A stretch of 64,000 nucleotides of DNA from Shigella phage Sf23 (MF158046), one strand, 5' to 3'; shown: positions 11,179 through 64,000, numbered from the stretch's first letter. Notes: a model not told the origin generated them from the letters alone. Made by a program: numbers and translations.

Positions 11179-11204
11179 TTTATTCTCCAAATCTGTATCA
11201 GTAG

Positions 11205-11250
11205 TTGATAGTTGTATAGTACCACAGAAGAACAGTCTTGTAAACAGTTT
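11205..11250 (-). promoter_or_regulatory. early-type promoter, conserved extended family
   Basis: GTTTAC...tggTACTATacaactatcaac; same ~50-bp consensus recurs at 36535, 37975, 53650 with flanking TTTTGTGAAAATTTT. Confidence 0.6.
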
Positions 11251-11327
11251 TGTGAAAATTTTTTAGGGAATTCTAAAGGTCCAGAATCATCTGTTTTTCA
11301 TAAGTATAGATTTATATTACTTGTATG

Positions 11328-25459: not shown

Positions 25460-25600
25460 ATCAAATCCTCAAAGGTAATTCATATGTTAATAATACCACG
25501 GTTTGAACTTGTTGTAAACAACTTTGTGAAAAATATTTCAGGGAATGATAAGAAAGGAACGATAGCTTAGAATGGTAATATACAGAATGTAAGAAAGAAA

Positions 25601-36514: not shown

Positions 36515-36534
36515 TTTGTGTTCCTCCGTAGTTG

Positions 36535-36575
36535 ATAGTTGTATAGTACCACAGAGGAACGGTCTTGTAAACAAC
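36535..36575 (-). promoter_or_regulatory. early-type promoter, conserved extended family
   Basis: rc of GTAAAC at 36567..36572 and TATAGTACC at 36542..36550. Confidence 0.55.
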
Positions 36576-36889
36576 TAAAAGAAACTTCTTTCACAATTTT
36601 TTCCACTGAACCACGCACTCACTGCTTTCTTAGTCTCAGGAGCAGTGTTATCCATAAACCATTCAAAGGCAGCCTTTTTATGATTCTGGAGGGCTTCTCG
36701 GGCTTTAATCTGCTCACGGTCTATTAACACTAACATATGAGCCTTTCTTGTCACCATGGGCTTCTTATGATTTTTTGAATACTCCCAATCATTTGTCCAT
36801 CGCATCGTTGTTGCGAACTGAAATACTGCTTCTTTAATTTTAGTTTCGTAAATTTCACGAGCCTTTGAGTATAACATCACTACCTCCAT
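36575..36889 (-). CDS. hypothetical protein (104 aa)
   Basis: ORF, no motif. Confidence 0.5.
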   Translation of the reverse strand: MEVVMLYSKAREIYETKIKEAVFQFATTMRWTNDWEYSKNHKKPMVTRKAHMLVLIDREQIKAREALQNHKKAAFEWFMDNTAPETKKAVSAWFSGKNCERSFF

Positions 36890-37947: not shown

Positions 37948-37974
37948 TTTATTCTCCAAATCCGTATCAGTTGA

Positions 37975-38015
37975 TAGTTGTATAGTACCATAAAGCTTTA
38001 TGCTTGTAAACCGTT
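37975..38015 (-). promoter_or_regulatory. early-type promoter, conserved extended family
   Basis: Same consensus (GTTGATAGTTGTATAGTACCA...GTAAACCGTTTTGTGAAAAATTTTT on plus); follows a terminator hairpin. Confidence 0.55.
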
Positions 38016-38025
38016 TTGTGAAAAA

Positions 38026-38050
38026 TTTTTGAAATAAAAAAGGGAGCCCG
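38026..38050 (-). terminator. rho-independent terminator
   Basis: GGGAGCCTTCGGGCTCCC followed by TTTTTT on the minus strand. Confidence 0.7.
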
Positions 38051-53612: not shown

Positions 53613-53649
53613 TTCATTCTCCAAGTTGTTTTCTGTATCAGTAGTTGAT

Positions 53650-53690
53650 AGTTGTATAGTACCATGGAAGGACAAGGATGTAAACCGTTT
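53650..53690 (-). promoter_or_regulatory. early-type promoter, conserved extended family
   Basis: GTAAACCGTTTTGTGAAAAAATTTTTT and GTTGATAGTTGTATAGTACCA on plus; near-identical to the 11205 copy. Confidence 0.55.
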
Positions 53691-53820
53691 TGTGAAAAAA
53701 TTTTTTAAAAAGTTTTAGGGAATTCTAGGGCAGGGAGGGGCAATTAAAAGATAGGATAATATATTATAAAGGGTAGAAACTAAATGATGCCTAGAGAGGC
53801 CTGGAAAGGCCTAGATACCA

Positions 53821-57014: not shown

Positions 57015-57019
57015 TTTAT

Positions 57020-57075
57020 TCTCCTCAGTAGTTGATAGGGTAATAGTATCACTACTAAAACCCCGTGTAAACAAC
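57020..57075 (-). promoter_or_regulatory. early-type promoter
   Basis: GTAAACAACTTTGTGAAATTATTTT and TAATAGTATCAC on plus; twin of the 57375 copy. Confidence 0.5.
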
Positions 57076-57084
57076 TTTGTGAAA

Positions 57085-57342
57085 TTATTTTAAATCTTCT
57101 AATCGTTTCTTCATCTTAGAACCATTTTTAGCGATTTCTCCTGCGTCAGAGCATAATGCTAAAAGTGCTTTAACTTTAGTTTGGTCTCCTTTAAAAGACG
57201 AAGGATCGACTGCAGCAGCAAGTTCTTTAATACGAGAGAAAAGACGCTCAGCTTCAGCTAAAGCCATTCCAAGCTTTACTTCCATACCATGAGAAGATTC
57301 AGTGATAATAGTTTCTGTAGCAAACTCTTTATAAGTTTTCAT
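57085..57342 (-). CDS. internal-protein-like capsid protein at the ipI locus (85 aa)
   Basis: N-terminus MKTYKEFATETIITE (CTS-like, I-x-E site); adjacent to 57B where T4 carries ipI. Confidence 0.6.
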   Translation of the reverse strand: MKTYKEFATETIITESSHGMEVKLGMALAEAERLFSRIKELAAAVDPSSFKGDQTKVKALLALCSDAGEIAKNGSKMKKRLEDLK

Positions 57343-57372
57343 TTTATTTTTCCTAATTAATTTTGATGAGGT

Positions 57373-58112
<740 letters not shown>

Positions 58113-58113
<1 letters not shown>

Positions 58114-58838
58114 TATAGTACCTTTAGTGTATTTTTAATTTTAGAAAAAAGTTCTTCAAGAGAACCATCGTTTGTAATTACTAAATCACCATCACGAATT
58201 GGCAATCCAGCTTCTGTAATATGTGTATCATTGGATTTTTGACCAGGACGAACTACATGAATTACTGTAGCACCCATCGCCCTAGCCGCATCCATTTCAT
58301 GATCTTGACGAGTATCAGGAACGATATAATAATCATAACCTGAGTTAAATTTATCAAGATAATCTAAAGCAAATAATTTTACCCAGTACATGCGGTCGAA
58401 GTTATTAACAATCAAATCCGTACCTAGGGCTTGCATCAGACGACGGACTGACCATTGATCTTCAATATTATTTATAACGTCAATAATCTTGTTAAATGCT
58501 ACGGAATTAACTGATTCTTCTCCTTCGTCATCAAAAACAAACACACCTTTAATTGGGCTTTTACCATTAAGATAGCAAAATGCTTGTTCCATAATCGCGA
58601 TTACTTCTGATTTAGTCAGATTTAAATTAGTCTCACGATCATAGTCAATTCCTTCAAACTCTTTACGAGTTAAGCAAGGATAGTCAGTGTTTGCTGCAAA
58701 TACTCCCCATGCATAAGCCAATGCATCCTTAATAGGACCAGCAAGTTGGTATTTAACTGCAGAATAATTGCTCATGATAAAATCAGCAGTAGTATCTTTT
58801 CCACTACGCTTTACACCGCTTAAAAAGATTAGTTTCAT
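58113..58838 (-). CDS. 1: deoxynucleoside monophosphate kinase gp1
   Basis: 241 aa from ATG MKLIFLSG (T4 gp1 is 241 aa); P-loop GVKRSGKDT; track ORF has an upstream non-ATG start. Confidence 0.9.
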
Positions 58839-58887
58839 GTGTTTCTCCTCAAATTTAATTAAGATTATAACACACAAAACTGAAGCA

Positions 58888-59418
58888 TTAAACTTCTGCT
58901 ATAATTTTTCCATCTTTTTCTACTTGAAAATAGGTGTAAGGAATCGTTGCAGTACATACTAACGCCGGGTCTGAATCTTCTGTGTAGCTAAATTCTACTT
59001 CAGATAGGTCAGAAACCCAAGGCTTATAAAAATTTATTGACATCACGATTTCAGTTTTGCTATTATCTAAGATGTAAAGCGTAATGTACTCAGGACCTGT
59101 TTTTTGGGCAGTATTTTCACCTGTAAGATAGTTGCTAGTTCCTAGCATCCATTCATACATTCCTATCCACGACTTAAGTTCTTCATCAACTATAAATCTC
59201 ACAATGAGTGGATCATACTCAAATGTAACACCTGGACGTTGTGCTCGGCCCAGTCCAAACGGCCCAGTCACGGTATCAGTAACAGGTATTCTAATTCCTG
59301 GAATAGGAACTGACTGAGCATTTAAAGTAAAAGCAGATGTAGTATTACTATGTGGTATTGATACTACAAAGTTAGTTGTATTTGCTTGGTTAAAAATTTG
59401 TTGCAGAGCTTGCGACAT
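58888..59418 (-). CDS. 3: gp3 tail completion/sheath stabilizer
   Basis: 176 aa from internal ATG MSQALQQ (T4 gp3 is 176 aa); synteny 1-3-2-4. Confidence 0.75.
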   Translation of the reverse strand: MSQALQQIFNQANTTNFVVSIPHSNTTSAFTLNAQSVPIPGIRIPVTDTVTGPFGLGRAQRPGVTFEYDPLIVRFIVDEELKSWIGMYEWMLGTSNYLTGENTAQKTGPEYITLYILDNSKTEIVMSINFYKPWVSDLSEVEFSYTEDSDPALVCTATIPYTYFQVEKDGKIIAEV

Positions 59419-59524
59419 ATATTCCTCATAATGCTTTATAACTGTTGGTGGTATAATGGGTCTAAGTCCCTTCCATTCAATTCCATTTAGAACAAACAAT
59501 AGAAAAGAATGGAAGATAATAGAA

Positions 59525-60349
59525 TTAGATATTTGACCAGACTTTGTTTGCAGAGAAACGTTTTCCTTTTGAAACGAACTGCTGAAGTGGCATTAATACA
59601 ACGTTCGCCCAGTCTTTCGGGGCGATTTCAACAAGGCTACCCATAATATTACCGGGTATATATGCCTTAATCATTTGGTCTGCACCCCTAAATCCTTTCA
59701 CTTGACTCCAATCAATTTTTAATTTCGTTTTATTAGTAATAGTAGGTGTATTTGCATATTGCTTTAAAAGCTCTTCTAGGAATTGCTGACGAGCTTTAGG
59801 TGGAATATAGTGCAAGTTCAATCCGTACATTAAGTTATGCTTACCTAAACCAAGGTAAATTATTAAAGGAAATTTATCCCAGTAAGGAAGAGTTTCCTTG
59901 TGTTTAGCATCATAAGCAAAAGCATATATTCGCCCCGGCTGCGGGCGAACAACTTTATGTCCTTTTACTTGCTTAATAGTTTCGGCAAACCATTTTCTGG
60001 TTTTATTATTAATTGCTGCACCTTCATTACGAATTTTATCGCGCAATGTTTGTCTGAATGAATTTATCATAAGCAGTTGTCTTTCTTGCTTATTGAGCTT
60101 ATTCATTGGTTTTGATTCAAGCTTTTGAATCTTTTCAGCCGTTTTAATTCCTGAAGCATATTTTGACATTGCCGAAGTAAACGTAGAGTATTTGATTCCT
60201 CTTTCTTCAGCAAATTGCTTTCCTGTCATTCCTTTTGCTTTGGCCTTTTTATATTCAAGACCTATTTGAATCCATTTCTTTTCGTTTAATGATTGCTTAA
60301 CCTTTGGAACTTGGGGAGTGCTTTCATTAATTATTTGAAAAATAGCCAT
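59525..60349 (-). CDS. 2: gp2 DNA end protector protein
   Basis: 274 aa as in T4 gp2; basic; synteny. Confidence 0.8.
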
Positions 60350-60801
60350 TATGCCCCCTTAAAGCCAAGAGCTCGTAATCCATCTTCTGTTAGAATTCTA
60401 AATTTTATTCCACGCTTTTCAGCTAAAGCTTGCGCTGCTTTCCATTTGTCGGTATTAACGGAATATGTATAAATTTCATTCATAAATCTTTTCTTCGCTG
60501 CAGTTGTTAGATGTGCTGGTTTAACTGGTGGTTGTGTTTCTTTTTTAGGTTTTATTTCAATAAAAAATTCTTGTCCAGAAGAATCTTTCATCCAAATATC
60601 CATGAAGTATCTACGTTTTTTCCCTTCTGCATTACAAAAATAAGGAATTACTGCTGTTTCACTACCCCATGCAATAATTTCTGGATTTTTATCTAACCAT
60701 TCAAAAAAGAATTTTTCCCAATTTGATCTATACGTAATTTTTTTAGGGTCACCTCTATACTTTGATATATTTTTAGGAACCCATTTTCCAGAATATGCCA
60801 T
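60349..60801 (-). CDS. 4: gp4 head completion protein
   Basis: 150 aa as in T4 gp4; late promoter upstream. Confidence 0.8.
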
Positions 60802-60812
60802 TGGATTCTCCT

Positions 60813-60820
60813 TATAAATA
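60813..60820 (+). promoter_or_regulatory. late promoter for gene 53 (plus strand)
   Basis: TATAAATA on plus, about 28 nt upstream of gp53 ATG. Confidence 0.65.
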
Positions 60821-60827
60821 GATAATA

Positions 60828-60835
60828 TATTTATA
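60828..60835 (-). promoter_or_regulatory. late promoter for gene 4 (minus strand), divergent from the gene 53 promoter
   Basis: rc is TATAAATA, about 27 nt upstream of gp4 ATG; the two late -10 boxes sit back-to-back within 25 bp. Confidence 0.6.
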
Positions 60836-60848
60836 AACAGGAGGGCCC

Positions 60849-61439
60849 ATGCTCTTTACATTTTTTGATCCGATTGAATATGCGGCCAAAACGGTGAATA
60901 AAAACGCGCCGACTATTCCTATGACAGATATTTTTAGAAACTATAAAGACTATTTTAAACGCGCTCTTGCGGGATACCGCTTACGTACTTATTATATCAA
61001 AGGTTCACCACGCCCGGAAGAATTAGCAAATACTATATATGGAAATCCACAGTTGTATTGGGTTTTATTGATGTGTAATGATAATTATGATCCATATTAT
61101 GGATGGATTACTTCGCAAGAAGCTGCTTATCAAGCATCTATACAAAAATACAAAAACGTAGGTGGAGACCAAATAGTATATCATGTGAATGAAAACGGTG
61201 AAAAATTTTACAATTTAATATCATACGATGATAATCCATATGTTTGGTATGATAAAGGCGATAAAGCTAAAAAATATCCTCAATATGAAGGAGCGCTTGC
61301 TGCTGTTAATACGTATGAAGCTGCTGTTCTTGAAAATGAAAAACTTCGTCAAATAAAAATAATAGCAAAATCAGACATCAATTCATTTATGAACGACCTT
61401 ATACGTATAATGGAGAAATCTTATGGAAATGATAAGTAA
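60849..61439 (+). CDS. 53: gp53 baseplate wedge protein
   Basis: 196 aa as in T4 gp53; late promoter TATAAATA 28 nt upstream; overlaps gene 5 start. Confidence 0.8.
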   Translation: MLFTFFDPIEYAAKTVNKNAPTIPMTDIFRNYKDYFKRALAGYRLRTYYIKGSPRPEELANTIYGNPQLYWVLLMCNDNYDPYYGWITSQEAAYQASIQKYKNVGGDQIVYHVNENGEKFYNLISYDDNPYVWYDKGDKAKKYPQYEGALAAVNTYEAAVLENEKLRQIKIIAKSDINSFMNDLIRIMEKSYGNDK

Positions 61440-63471
61440 TAACCTCAATTGGTTTGTTGGTGTTGTTGAAGATAGAATGGACCCATTGAAATTAGGTCGT
61501 GTTCGTGTTCGTGTTGTTGGTCTGCATCCACCTCAAAGAGCACAAGGTGATGTAATGGGTATTCCAACTGAAAAATTACCATGGATGTCAGTTATTCAAC
61601 CTATAACTTCTGCAGCAATGTCTGGAATTGGAGGCTCCGTTACTGGACCGGTAGAAGGAACTAGAGTTTATGGTCATTTTTTAGACAAATGGAAAACCAA
61701 CGGAATTGTTCTTGGCACGTATGGTGGAATAGTTCGCGAAAAACCGAATAGACTTGAAGGATTTTCTGATCCAACTGGACAATATCCTAGACGTTTAGGA
61801 AATGATACTAACGTACTAAACCAAGGCGGAGAAGTAGGATATGATTCGTCTTCTAACGTTATCCAAGATAGTAACTTAGACACCGCAATAAATCCCGATG
61901 ATAGACCACTATCAGAGATTCCAACTGATGATAATCCAAATATGTCAATGGCTGAAATGCTTCGCCGTGATGAAGGATTAAGACTAAAAGTTTATTGGGA
62001 TACTGAAGGATATCCGACAATTGGTATTGGTCATCTTATCATGAAACAGCCAGTTCGTGATATGGCTCAAATTAATAAAGTTTTATCAAAACAAGTTGGT
62101 CGTGAAATTACTGGAAATCCAGGTTCTATTACAATGGAAGAAGCGGTAACTTTATTTGAACGTGATTTAGCTGATATGCAACGTGACATTAAATCACATT
62201 CTAAAGTAGGACCAGTCTGGCAAGCTGTCAACCGTTCTCGTCAAATGGCATTAGAAAATATGGCATTTCAGATGGGTGTTGGCGGTGTAGCTAAATTTAA
62301 CACAATGTTAACTGCTATGTTAGCAGGAGATTGGGAAAAAGCATATAAAGCTGGTCGTGATTCGTTGTGGTATCAACAAACAAAAGGCCGTGCATCCCGT
62401 GTTACCATGATTATTCTTACCGGAAATTTGGAATCATATGGTATTGAAGTTAAAACACCAGCTAGGTCTTTGTCGGCAATGGCTGCTACTGTGGCGAAGT
62501 CTTCTGATCCAGCTGACCCTCCTATTCCAAATGACTCAAGAATTTTATTCAAAGAACCAGTTTCTTCATATAAAGGCGAATATCCGTATGTTCACACAAT
62601 GGAAACTGAAAGCGGTCATATTCAGGAATTTGATGATACCCCTGGGCAAGAACGATATAGATTAGTTCATCCAACTGGAACTTATGAAGAAGTATCACCG
62701 TCAGGAAGAAGAACAAGAAAAACTGTCGATAATTTGTATGATATAACCAACGCTGATGGTAATTTTTTGGTAGCCGGCGATAAAAAGACTAACGTCGGTG
62801 GATCAGAAATTTATTACAACATGGATAATCGTCTTCACCAAATAGATGGAAGCAATACGATATTTGTGCGTGGAGATGAAACTAAGACAGATAAAGGCGA
62901 ATATCCGTATGTTCACACAATGGAAACTGAAAGCGGTCATATTCAGGAATTTGATGATACCCCTGGGCAAGAACGATATAGATTAGTTCATCCAACTGGA
63001 ACTTATGAAGAAGTATCACCGTCAGGAAGAAGAACAAGAAAAACTGTCGATAATTTGTATGATATAACCAACGCTGATGGTAATTTTTTGGTAGCCGGCG
63101 ATAAAAAGACTAACGTCGGTGGATCAGAAATTTATTACAACATGGATAATCGTCTTCACCAAATAGATGGAAGCAATACGATATTTGTGCGTGGAGATGA
63201 AACTAAGACAGTTGAAGGTAATGGAACTATCCTAGTTAAAGGTAATGTTACTATTGTAGTTGAAGGTAATGCTGACATTACAGTTAAAGGAGATGCTACC
63301 ACTTTAGTTGAAGGAAATCAAACTAATACAGTAAATGGAAATCTTTCTTGGAAAGTTGCTGGGACAGTTGATTGGGACGTTGGTGGTGATTGGACAGAAA
63401 AAATGGCATCTATGAGTTCTATTTCATCTGGTCAATACACAATTGATGGATCGAGGATTGACATTGGCTAA
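61423..63471 (+). CDS. 5: gp5 baseplate hub/tail lysozyme with internal 107-aa tandem duplication
   Basis: 682 aa vs 575 aa in T4; OB domain, lysozyme domain similar to gpe (EGLRLKVYWDTEGYPTIGIGHL), C-terminal VxGxxxxx beta-helix repeats; exact 321-bp tandem repeat accounts for the extra length. Confidence 0.9.
   Translation: MEMISNNLNWFVGVVEDRMDPLKLGRVRVRVVGLHPPQRAQGDVMGIPTEKLPWMSVIQPITSAAMSGIGGSVTGPVEGTRVYGHFLDKWKTNGIVLGTYGGIVREKPNRLEGFSDPTGQYPRRLGNDTNVLNQGGEVGYDSSSNVIQDSNLDTAINPDDRPLSEIPTDDNPNMSMAEMLRRDEGLRLKVYWDTEGYPTIGIGHLIMKQPVRDMAQINKVLSKQVGREITGNPGSITMEEAVTLFERDLADMQRDIKSHSKVGPVWQAVNRSRQMALENMAFQMGVGGVAKFNTMLTAMLAGDWEKAYKAGRDSLWYQQTKGRASRVTMIILTGNLESYGIEVKTPARSLSAMAATVAKSSDPADPPIPNDSRILFKEPVSSYKGEYPYVHTMETESGHIQEFDDTPGQERYRLVHPTGTYEEVSPSGRRTRKTVDNLYDITNADGNFLVAGDKKTNVGGSEIYYNMDNRLHQIDGSNTIFVRGDETKTDKGEYPYVHTMETESGHIQEFDDTPGQERYRLVHPTGTYEEVSPSGRRTRKTVDNLYDITNADGNFLVAGDKKTNVGGSEIYYNMDNRLHQIDGSNTIFVRGDETKTVEGNGTILVKGNVTIVVEGNADITVKGDATTLVEGNQTNTVNGNLSWKVAGTVDWDVGGDWTEKMASMSSISSGQYTIDGSRIDIG
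62570..63211 (+). repeat. perfect tandem direct duplication, 2 x 321 bp, inside gene 5
   Basis: 62570..62890 is base-for-base identical to 62891..63211; in frame (107 codons); junction encodes ...RGDETKT-DKGEYPYV... Confidence 0.95.
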
Positions 63472-63481
63472 TATACTTCCA

Positions 63482-64000
63482 ATGAGCGCTGATTTAGGAG
63501 AATCCATGGAAGGTTCTTCTATCGACGTCACCTTTACCGCTCAATTAGAAACAGGTGAAACGTTAGTATCTATAAATATAACTAGTTACGAAGAAACTCC
63601 TGGGGTTTTAGTAGAAGAAAATCGCTTATACGGAACATATGAATCTGTGTTTGGTTTTGGAAATGACGCGTTGAAATATCGTTTAGGCGATGAATTTAAA
63701 ACTGCTGCTTCATGGGAAGAACTTCCAACTGATTCTAATACTCAGTTGTATTTGTGGAAAGCTCCCCAAAACCTCCAGAAGACATTCACTTACGAAGTAA
63801 CATTAATATATGACTATCAAGAACAAAGTGAATCTGGAGGTTCTGGCAGTAATTCTAGGTCATCTTCTGATACTACTGAACCGACAGATCCTCCTGCTCC
63901 AGTAAGAAAAACTCTCGTTAAAAATTATACTAAAACTATAGTTGGAAATTGGAGTCGTTGGGCTAATAAGCTGAGAAGCTATGTGTATGAGAGGCCATAA
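63482..64000 (+). CDS. hypothetical protein (5.1 position, 172 aa from first ATG after gene 5 stop)
   Basis: ORF downstream of gene 5, ending at the last base of the window; Ser/Gly-rich acidic segment. Confidence 0.5.
   Translation: MSADLGESMEGSSIDVTFTAQLETGETLVSINITSYEETPGVLVEENRLYGTYESVFGFGNDALKYRLGDEFKTAASWEELPTDSNTQLYLWKAPQNLQKTFTYEVTLIYDYQEQSESGGSGSNSRSSSDTTEPTDPPAPVRKTLVKNYTKTIVGNWSRWANKLRSYVYERP

Follow-up and report, generated by a model that had tools for sequence, protein, structure and literature searches.

The needle of T4-type phages is formed by the C-terminal β-helix of gp5, which exists only as an interdigitated trimer. In phage T4, gp5 is cleaved between S351 and A352, and its β-helix comprises residues 389-575 and is 110 Å long (PMC3004832, PMC4576200). 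The helix starts as a non-intertwined antiparallel sheet (389-427/435) and continues as a three-start, intertwined structure built of octapeptides with the repeat motif VxGxxxxx (PMC3004832, PMC4576200). Its residues 389-482 lie under the lysozyme domain; it accepts engineered length changes and possesses an internal folding nucleus at residues 483-525 (PMC4576200).

Tandem duplications are readily formed in T4 (PMC9391042). Independent amplifications of dmd-tifA have their boundaries at microhomologies of 6-10 bp, one copy of which is left between the repeats (PMC9391042), and all T4 deletions that escape CRISPR, as well as the classical deletions compensating rII duplications, have end repeats of at least 3-4 nt (PMC8262927). 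Exact repeats may also be introduced by assembly: untrimmed 127-bp end overlaps of SPAdes contigs are a documented hazard and are removed in phage genome finishing (PMC5923482).

Gene 5 of phage Sf23 and its surroundings

The window analyzed here, a 64,000-nt stretch of the Shigella phage Sf23 genome (MF158046), belongs to a Tequatrovirus and is ~98% identical to Sa45lw, CAM-21, wV7 and similar phages. It is collinear and co-oriented with genomes that follow the T4 convention, its position 1 corresponding to ~13.9 kb. The base quality is high, with no Ns and with few indels, intergenic or mutually compensating, relative to Sa45lw over 50 kb. Poor base quality was considered as a cause of the repeat described below and was rejected, given the lack of Ns and of notable frameshifting indels relative to Sa45lw.

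Gene 5 (61423..63471, plus strand) encodes the baseplate central spike and tail lysozyme. Its product exhibits the domain set of T4 gp5, an N-terminal OB-fold, a GH24 lysozyme and a C-terminal VxGxxxxx triple β-helix, with Pfam matches to Gp5_OB (2e-66), Phage_lysozyme (5e-12), Gp5_C (5e-27) and Gp5_trimer_C (1e-9). It is near-identical to the 575-residue T4 gp5 chains of PDB entries 1K28, 1WTH and 1PDL along two stretches, residues 1-483 matching 1-483 and residues 502-682 matching 395-575, and T4 numbering therefore applies. The domains and the T4 chains support the initial annotation of this gene as the tail spike/lysozyme gene, whose product has 575 amino acids in T4, and the ORF does read 682 amino acids instead of 575, as had been proposed. 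As written, the protein departs from the form of ~575 residues with a single 384-489 segment; with one copy of the repeat removed, it is 575 amino acids long and its gene aligns without gaps over 1728 nt with more than 30 loci.

Upstream, gene 53 (60849..61439, plus strand; baseplate wedge, PF11246 Phage_gp53) overlaps the start of gene 5, and gene 5.1 (63446..64000, plus strand; PF26906 Phage_T4_Y07E) follows downstream; the order 53 - 5 - 5.1 is the same in relatives. The exact gene 5.1 product is found in 13 contigs, and the adjoining gp5 is 575 amino acids long in all 10 shown. The last codon of the window (63998-64000) is the gene 5.1 stop, probably by coincidence, and gene 5.4, encoding the PAAR protein that caps the gp5 needle, lies just past the window end.

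Two of the fetched loci (L023 12325-13191 and L035 6311-7177) carry between genes 5 and 5.1 a 288-aa ORF without any Pfam match, next to a gp5 of 576 amino acids; this ORF may be a mobile insertion and is absent from the window. A 219-aa homing-endonuclease gene annotated as mobB occupies the gap between genes 3 and 2 in CAM-21, ESh32 and one Logan contig (L012 7470-8137, L024 8018-8677 and L053 1742-2401), where the window has 9 nt (59528-59536). In Sa45lw (MK977694; L046 4583-5179), genes 5.1 and 5.4 are separated by a 198-aa ORF whose SegE-GIY-YIG and NUMOD3 matches are faint and which is absent from most other relatives fetched. The window also contains a dispersed family of ~70-nt intergenic repeats (…GTTGATAGTTGTATAGTACCAC…CTTGTAAACA…TTTGTGAAAA…) at 11192-11264, 25466-25538, 36519-36591, 37958-38030, 53632-53704, 57019-57091 and 57363-57431. 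On the minus strand these presumably resemble T4 early promoters (GTTTAC … TATAC). Several Logan contigs from different runs end beside the copy at 57363-57431.

A perfect tandem repeat with a blunt join

Within gene 5, direct comparison of 62570..62890 with 62891..63211 reveals identity at 321 of 321 positions. The same unit is returned by TRF (period 321, 2.0 copies, score 1284), and the run of identity between each base and the base 321 positions later is exactly 321 long. Together with the open 682-aa ORF, these results bear out the perfect 321-bp in-frame tandem duplication first noticed in gene 5. The unit stands alone in the 64-kb window as the sole exact direct repeat of at least 45 nt within 3 kb. 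Judged from the sequences, a chance origin of a 321-nt repeat is excluded, because no clean natural tandem duplication occurs in the 1.12 Mb of T4-like sequence fetched from related loci.

The join between the two copies, ...GATGAAACTAAGACAG|ATAAAGGCGAATATCC..., is a blunt one that shows neither shared sequence (0 nt of microhomology) nor filler. The repeat is flanked by ...TTCAT|ATAAAGG on its left and ...GACAG|TTGAAGG on its right, neither of which adds a single base to the end of the unit. The nearest word common to both boundaries, AAGG, sits 3 nt further inward and does not mark the crossover. An imperfect similarity is present near the boundaries (TATAAAGG vs GTTGAAGG; YKGE/VEGN, ..T.AAGG), and a crossover within its AAGG was considered; it predicts ...ACAGTTGAAGGCGAA..., but the junction reads ...ACAGATAAAGGCGAA..., and this route was rejected.

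The join bears directly on the possibility that the repeat is a real, very recent in-frame tandem duplication carried by the sequenced stock, which would yield a gp5 with residues 384-489 twice and a longer needle. The repeat is in frame and leaves the ORF open, the base-level quality of the window is good, and T4 is prone to tandem duplication (PMC9391042), all of which speak for such an event; sequenced T4 rearrangement junctions nevertheless lead one to expect a boundary microhomology of at least 3-4 nt, typically 6-10, against the 0 nt found here. A real duplication is considered unlikely. Duplications of rII in T4 are unstable and, given the very active homologous recombination of this phage, a perfect 321-nt tandem repeat would be expected to recombine away fast unless selected, a further point against a real event.

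The repeat in the gp5 needle

The first base of the unit is the second of codon 383. Copy 1 (62570..62890, plus strand) comprises two thirds of the Y383 codon, K384-T489 and the initial base of the codon that follows, and copy 2 (62891..63211, plus strand) is 100% identical to it. At the protein level, the 106 residues K384-T489 (T4 numbering) are present twice, separated by a new Asp whose codon GAT (62890..62892, plus strand) assembles the last base of copy 1 and the first two bases of copy 2 (G|AT). The junction peptide reads ...GDETKTDKGEYPY... (also given as GDETKTDKGEYPYVHTMETESGHIQEFDDTPGQER). The duplication had initially been counted as 107 residues; the repeat itself stands, but it amounts to 106 identical residues plus the junction Asp.

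The repeated block is composed of 5 linker residues (384-388) followed by 101 β-helix residues (389-489), the N-terminal 54% of the helix. Its earlier placement in the linker after the lysozyme domain and in the needle start was essentially right, save that the share of the linker is only 5 residues. The right boundary falls within an octapeptide (GDETKT|VE), directly before the regular 24-nt periodic array. This imperfect natural 24/48-nt array (63210..63342, plus strand; TRF period 24/48, 70-84% matches), which corresponds to the VxGxxxxx octapeptides of the β-helix, begins exactly at the right end of copy 2.

Residues 384-489 roughly coincide with a structural module, namely the half of the helix that is shielded by lysozyme (389-482). 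At the junction, Gly stays in the octapeptide 'a' position, where the helix kinks, and Asp takes the place of Val490 at position g (...GDETKT|VEG... context). The correspondence between block and module and the retained Gly make a foldable product possible, and as such they count in favor of a real duplication and against an artefact. Engineered helix lengths are tolerated, and the folding nucleus 483-525 would be kept once, downstream (PMC4576200), which points the same way; the exchange of the conserved octapeptide Val for Asp argues against a real duplication.

Distribution of the junction and of two-copy gp5

The collections searched for the junction do not contain the window sequence itself. 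Gene 5 was found by megablast in 539 of 50,697 GenBank phage records, and the listed ones all harbor one copy, matched in two pieces that together cover 1780 nt (2101-321 nt) of the record. An 80-nt junction probe gave no contiguous megablast match among GenBank phages, its halves aligning separately, one at each end of the single unit. Searches of IMG/VR, JGI metagenome contigs and 100,044 GTDB genomes gave 0 matches to the exact junction pattern and likewise to a version with every wobble position degenerate; a control pattern, covering the normal right boundary, was recovered. A 41-mer carrying a window-private SNP had no match in any of these three collections.

Protein searches are in keeping with this distribution. 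Exact-product look-up in a protein index revealed no 682- or 680-aa product on record. Among the best 120 of 1369 gp5 homologue clusters, lengths range from 403 to 595 amino acids, and from 559 to 595 for the full-length ones; a two-copy gp5 would score highest and hence rank first. Such a tightly conserved length argues against a real duplication. A HMMER search with the 106-aa unit against 1.8 billion representatives identified 2306 homologues and no gp5-type protein holding the unit twice. Matches in multiple stretches were considered as natural duplicates and rejected, since they reflect the usual internal repetition of the helix or, for P0123, an unrelated repeat protein. Literature searches returned no description of a gp5 duplication.

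One of the homologues, P0121, is a 198-aa gp5 fragment whose M393-T489 segment matches the window at 100% identity and which stays T4-like as far as residue ~500. Beyond ~500, the tip of its β-helix differs and is ~15 residues longer (…KVVIQGTADITVEQEAYITVEKDTT…GGNVQVG), with no exact PDB chimera match, which suggests a natural mosaic exchange of the needle tip. Mosaicism of this kind lends some plausibility to a natural change of the needle such as a real duplication would be.

At the level of nucleotide sequence, all fetched loci with gene 5 encode a single-copy gp5 of 574-576 amino acids, with the exception of one split record discussed below, and gene 5 of phage AR1 has its normal 1728 nt. 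The closest lineage was reached via the exact products of neighboring genes, gp43 being too conserved to help. It is represented by Logan contig SRR36526148_2038 (run SRR36526148), which aligns without gaps to the de-duplicated window over 57398-64000, with 5 mismatches in 6282 nt (99.92%). All five are located between 60245 and 61488, and 61489-64000 is 100% identical. The contig shares both SNPs that are otherwise private to the window (57542 and 58520), and it runs through ...GACAG|TTGAAGG... with one copy. Inheritance of the repeat by related isolates or assemblies is thus not observed, even at this distance, and, with one copy in the nearest lineage and in the other fetched loci, the duplication, if real, would be private to the sequenced stock. 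Its absence from this near-identical lineage and from every other assembly and protein cluster examined further weakens the case for a real event.

Assembly artefacts in related records

Across the 1.12 Mb of fetched T4-like sequence, only three exact nearby repeats of at least 50 nt were found. The first is in Escherichia phage vB_EcoM_G4507 (MK327946.1; RefSeq NC_054919.1), in which gene 5 is annotated as two CDSs. This gene holds poly-T runs and a complete Illumina Nextera P7 adapter (CAAGCAGAAGACGGCATACGAGAT-CAGCCTCG-GTCTCGTGGGCTCGGAGATGTGTATAAGAGACAG; index CAGCCTCG), after which 55 nt of the gene sequence that came before are repeated (L013 2090-2211, ~76,638-76,759 of the record). The insert reads clearly as a contig end rotated into the interior, that is, as contig-end contamination.

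The two others are in ENA scaffolds, GAIO21-1_SAMN11097765 scaffold_663 (L003 2008-2217) and SAMN11097764 scaffold_415 (L005 9825-10034), where the same 55 nt stand on both sides of a 100-N gap. Going by their sequence, these repeats are contig overlaps of k=55 that were left unmerged. In L005, the gp8 call is shortened to 194 amino acids by the gap. With three cases in 1.12 Mb, artefacts of this class are frequent in the group to which the window belongs.

Origin of the second copy

The initial annotation left a choice between a very recent event and an assembly error. Between the two, an error is favored by the lack of microhomology, by the absence of the junction elsewhere and by the single copy of the near-identical lineage, and the recent event retains the low probability given above. 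The 321-nt repeat is probably a finishing artefact, made of overlapping sequence ends that were concatenated untrimmed, and the phage itself most likely lacks the second copy.

A circularly permuted T4-type genome assembles as a circle, which would leave a linear contig with the same sequence at both ends, or else overlapping contigs. Should such ends be joined by plain concatenation, for example on rotation to the T4 start convention, the overlap would turn into an exact, blunt and internal tandem duplication, of any length and at any position. In the present case the overlap would have been 321 nt long and would have fallen by chance inside gene 5. Since 321 is a multiple of 3, the ORF would have remained open and gp5 would have passed from 575 to 682 amino acids.

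Several features are those expected from this mechanism. The copies are identical and adjacent, with arbitrary, homology-free boundaries; a blunt, exactly tandem join would result from simply concatenating overlapping ends. The repeat occurs in one record only, and removal of a copy restores collinearity with relatives. The T4-convention collinearity and orientation of the window are compatible with a rotated record. In addition, the base rate of finishing artefacts is higher than that of a new viable duplication becoming fixed in a plaque-purified stock. From the exact repeat, a join without homology, the lack of a second occurrence and the artefact class documented in sister assemblies, we infer that this record was probably made by such a route.

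Other observations count against an artefact. The in-frame length has a 1 in 3 chance of occurring (a factor of ~3), and the base-level quality of the window is high. The repeat is 321 nt long and clean, unlike the verified 55-nt cases with their filler, a difference that in turn speaks for a real duplication. A length of 321 nt is not a usual k (compare 55 and 127); it is of read scale for overlap-layout assemblers or manual merging, and an artefact would require an assembler of the overlap type or a manual merge.

The blunt join would also suit a chimera of the ligation type, and a de Bruijn assembler given the junction k-mers outputs X-U-U-Y even if they stem from a minority. The second copy might then originate from a minority rearranged subpopulation, from a library or amplification chimera in the consensus, or from a post-assembly edit, the junction not being in viable phage. 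Yet random chimeras rarely pass assembly coverage thresholds, a same-strand, exactly tandem and in-frame product has no cause under chimerism, and the window is devoid of adapters, Ns and local errors; an origin of this kind seems very improbable.

Consequences for gp5 and for public records

If the repeat is the concatenation artefact favored above, the gp5 annotation returns to 575 amino acids and the record loses 321 nt. Other flawed public records come to light by the same check, among them the RefSeq record of G4507 with an Illumina adapter in gene 5, which needs correction.

The sequence evidence offers little reason to expect a real longer needle. Were the duplication real, gp5 would have a mass of 75.3 kDa instead of 63.1 kDa, and cleavage at S351/A352 would release a gp5C of 331 amino acids and 36.4 kDa, compared to 224 amino acids and 24.3 kDa. 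The needle would gain ~63 Å (107 x 110/187), ~57% over the 110 Å of T4. Copy 1 is predicted to contact the OB and lysozyme domains as in the native protein, and copy 2 to be stacked beneath it. The second 'A' segment would comprise the antiparallel start (389-427/435) and the first intertwined turns, so that a non-intertwined part would come after an intertwined one. The needle tip, to which gp5.4 binds, would be intact, and the inward Val490 of one rung would become Asp. The highly conserved gp5 needle would thereby have its first natural length variant. Such a variant would imply that a 57% extension and a second copy of a folding module are tolerated by the needle, would bear on the limits that the baseplate cavity and the periplasm set to spike length, and would provide a ready-made test of needle length in envelope puncture and baseplate assembly.

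Comparison with known systems

The window gp5 can be compared to T4 gp5 and its engineered length variants (PDB IDs 1K28, 1WTH, 4JJ2 and 6P20-6P2A; PMC4576200), which share the same protein and numbering and in which length is manipulated on the basis of the VxGxxxxx motif. Engineered and natural gp5 variants alter the solvent-exposed C-terminal part (483-575), whereas the window repeats the lysozyme-shielded N-terminal half including the antiparallel start, a repetition seen in no gp5 homologue examined.

With the T4 duplications formed at microhomologies (rII; dmd-tifA, PMC9391042; PMC8262927), the repeat shares its head-to-tail arrangement, a T4-type genome and the zero divergence of its copies. 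These duplications differ in keeping one 3-10 nt copy of the homology at the junction, where the window join has none. Moreover, they are selected for the dosage of whole genes, are typically kb-scale and multi-copy, and do not lie inside an essential structural gene.

The contig-end overlap artefacts (PMC5923482; G4507; L003 and L005) resemble the window repeat in being exact direct repeats with homology-free boundaries, restricted to a single record and found in genomes that assemble as circles. The verified cases differ by their k-mer-sized 55 nt and by the adapter, poly-T or 100 Ns between the copies, whereas the 321-nt copies of the window abut each other in frame. The artefact of G4507 resides in the same gene as the window repeat.
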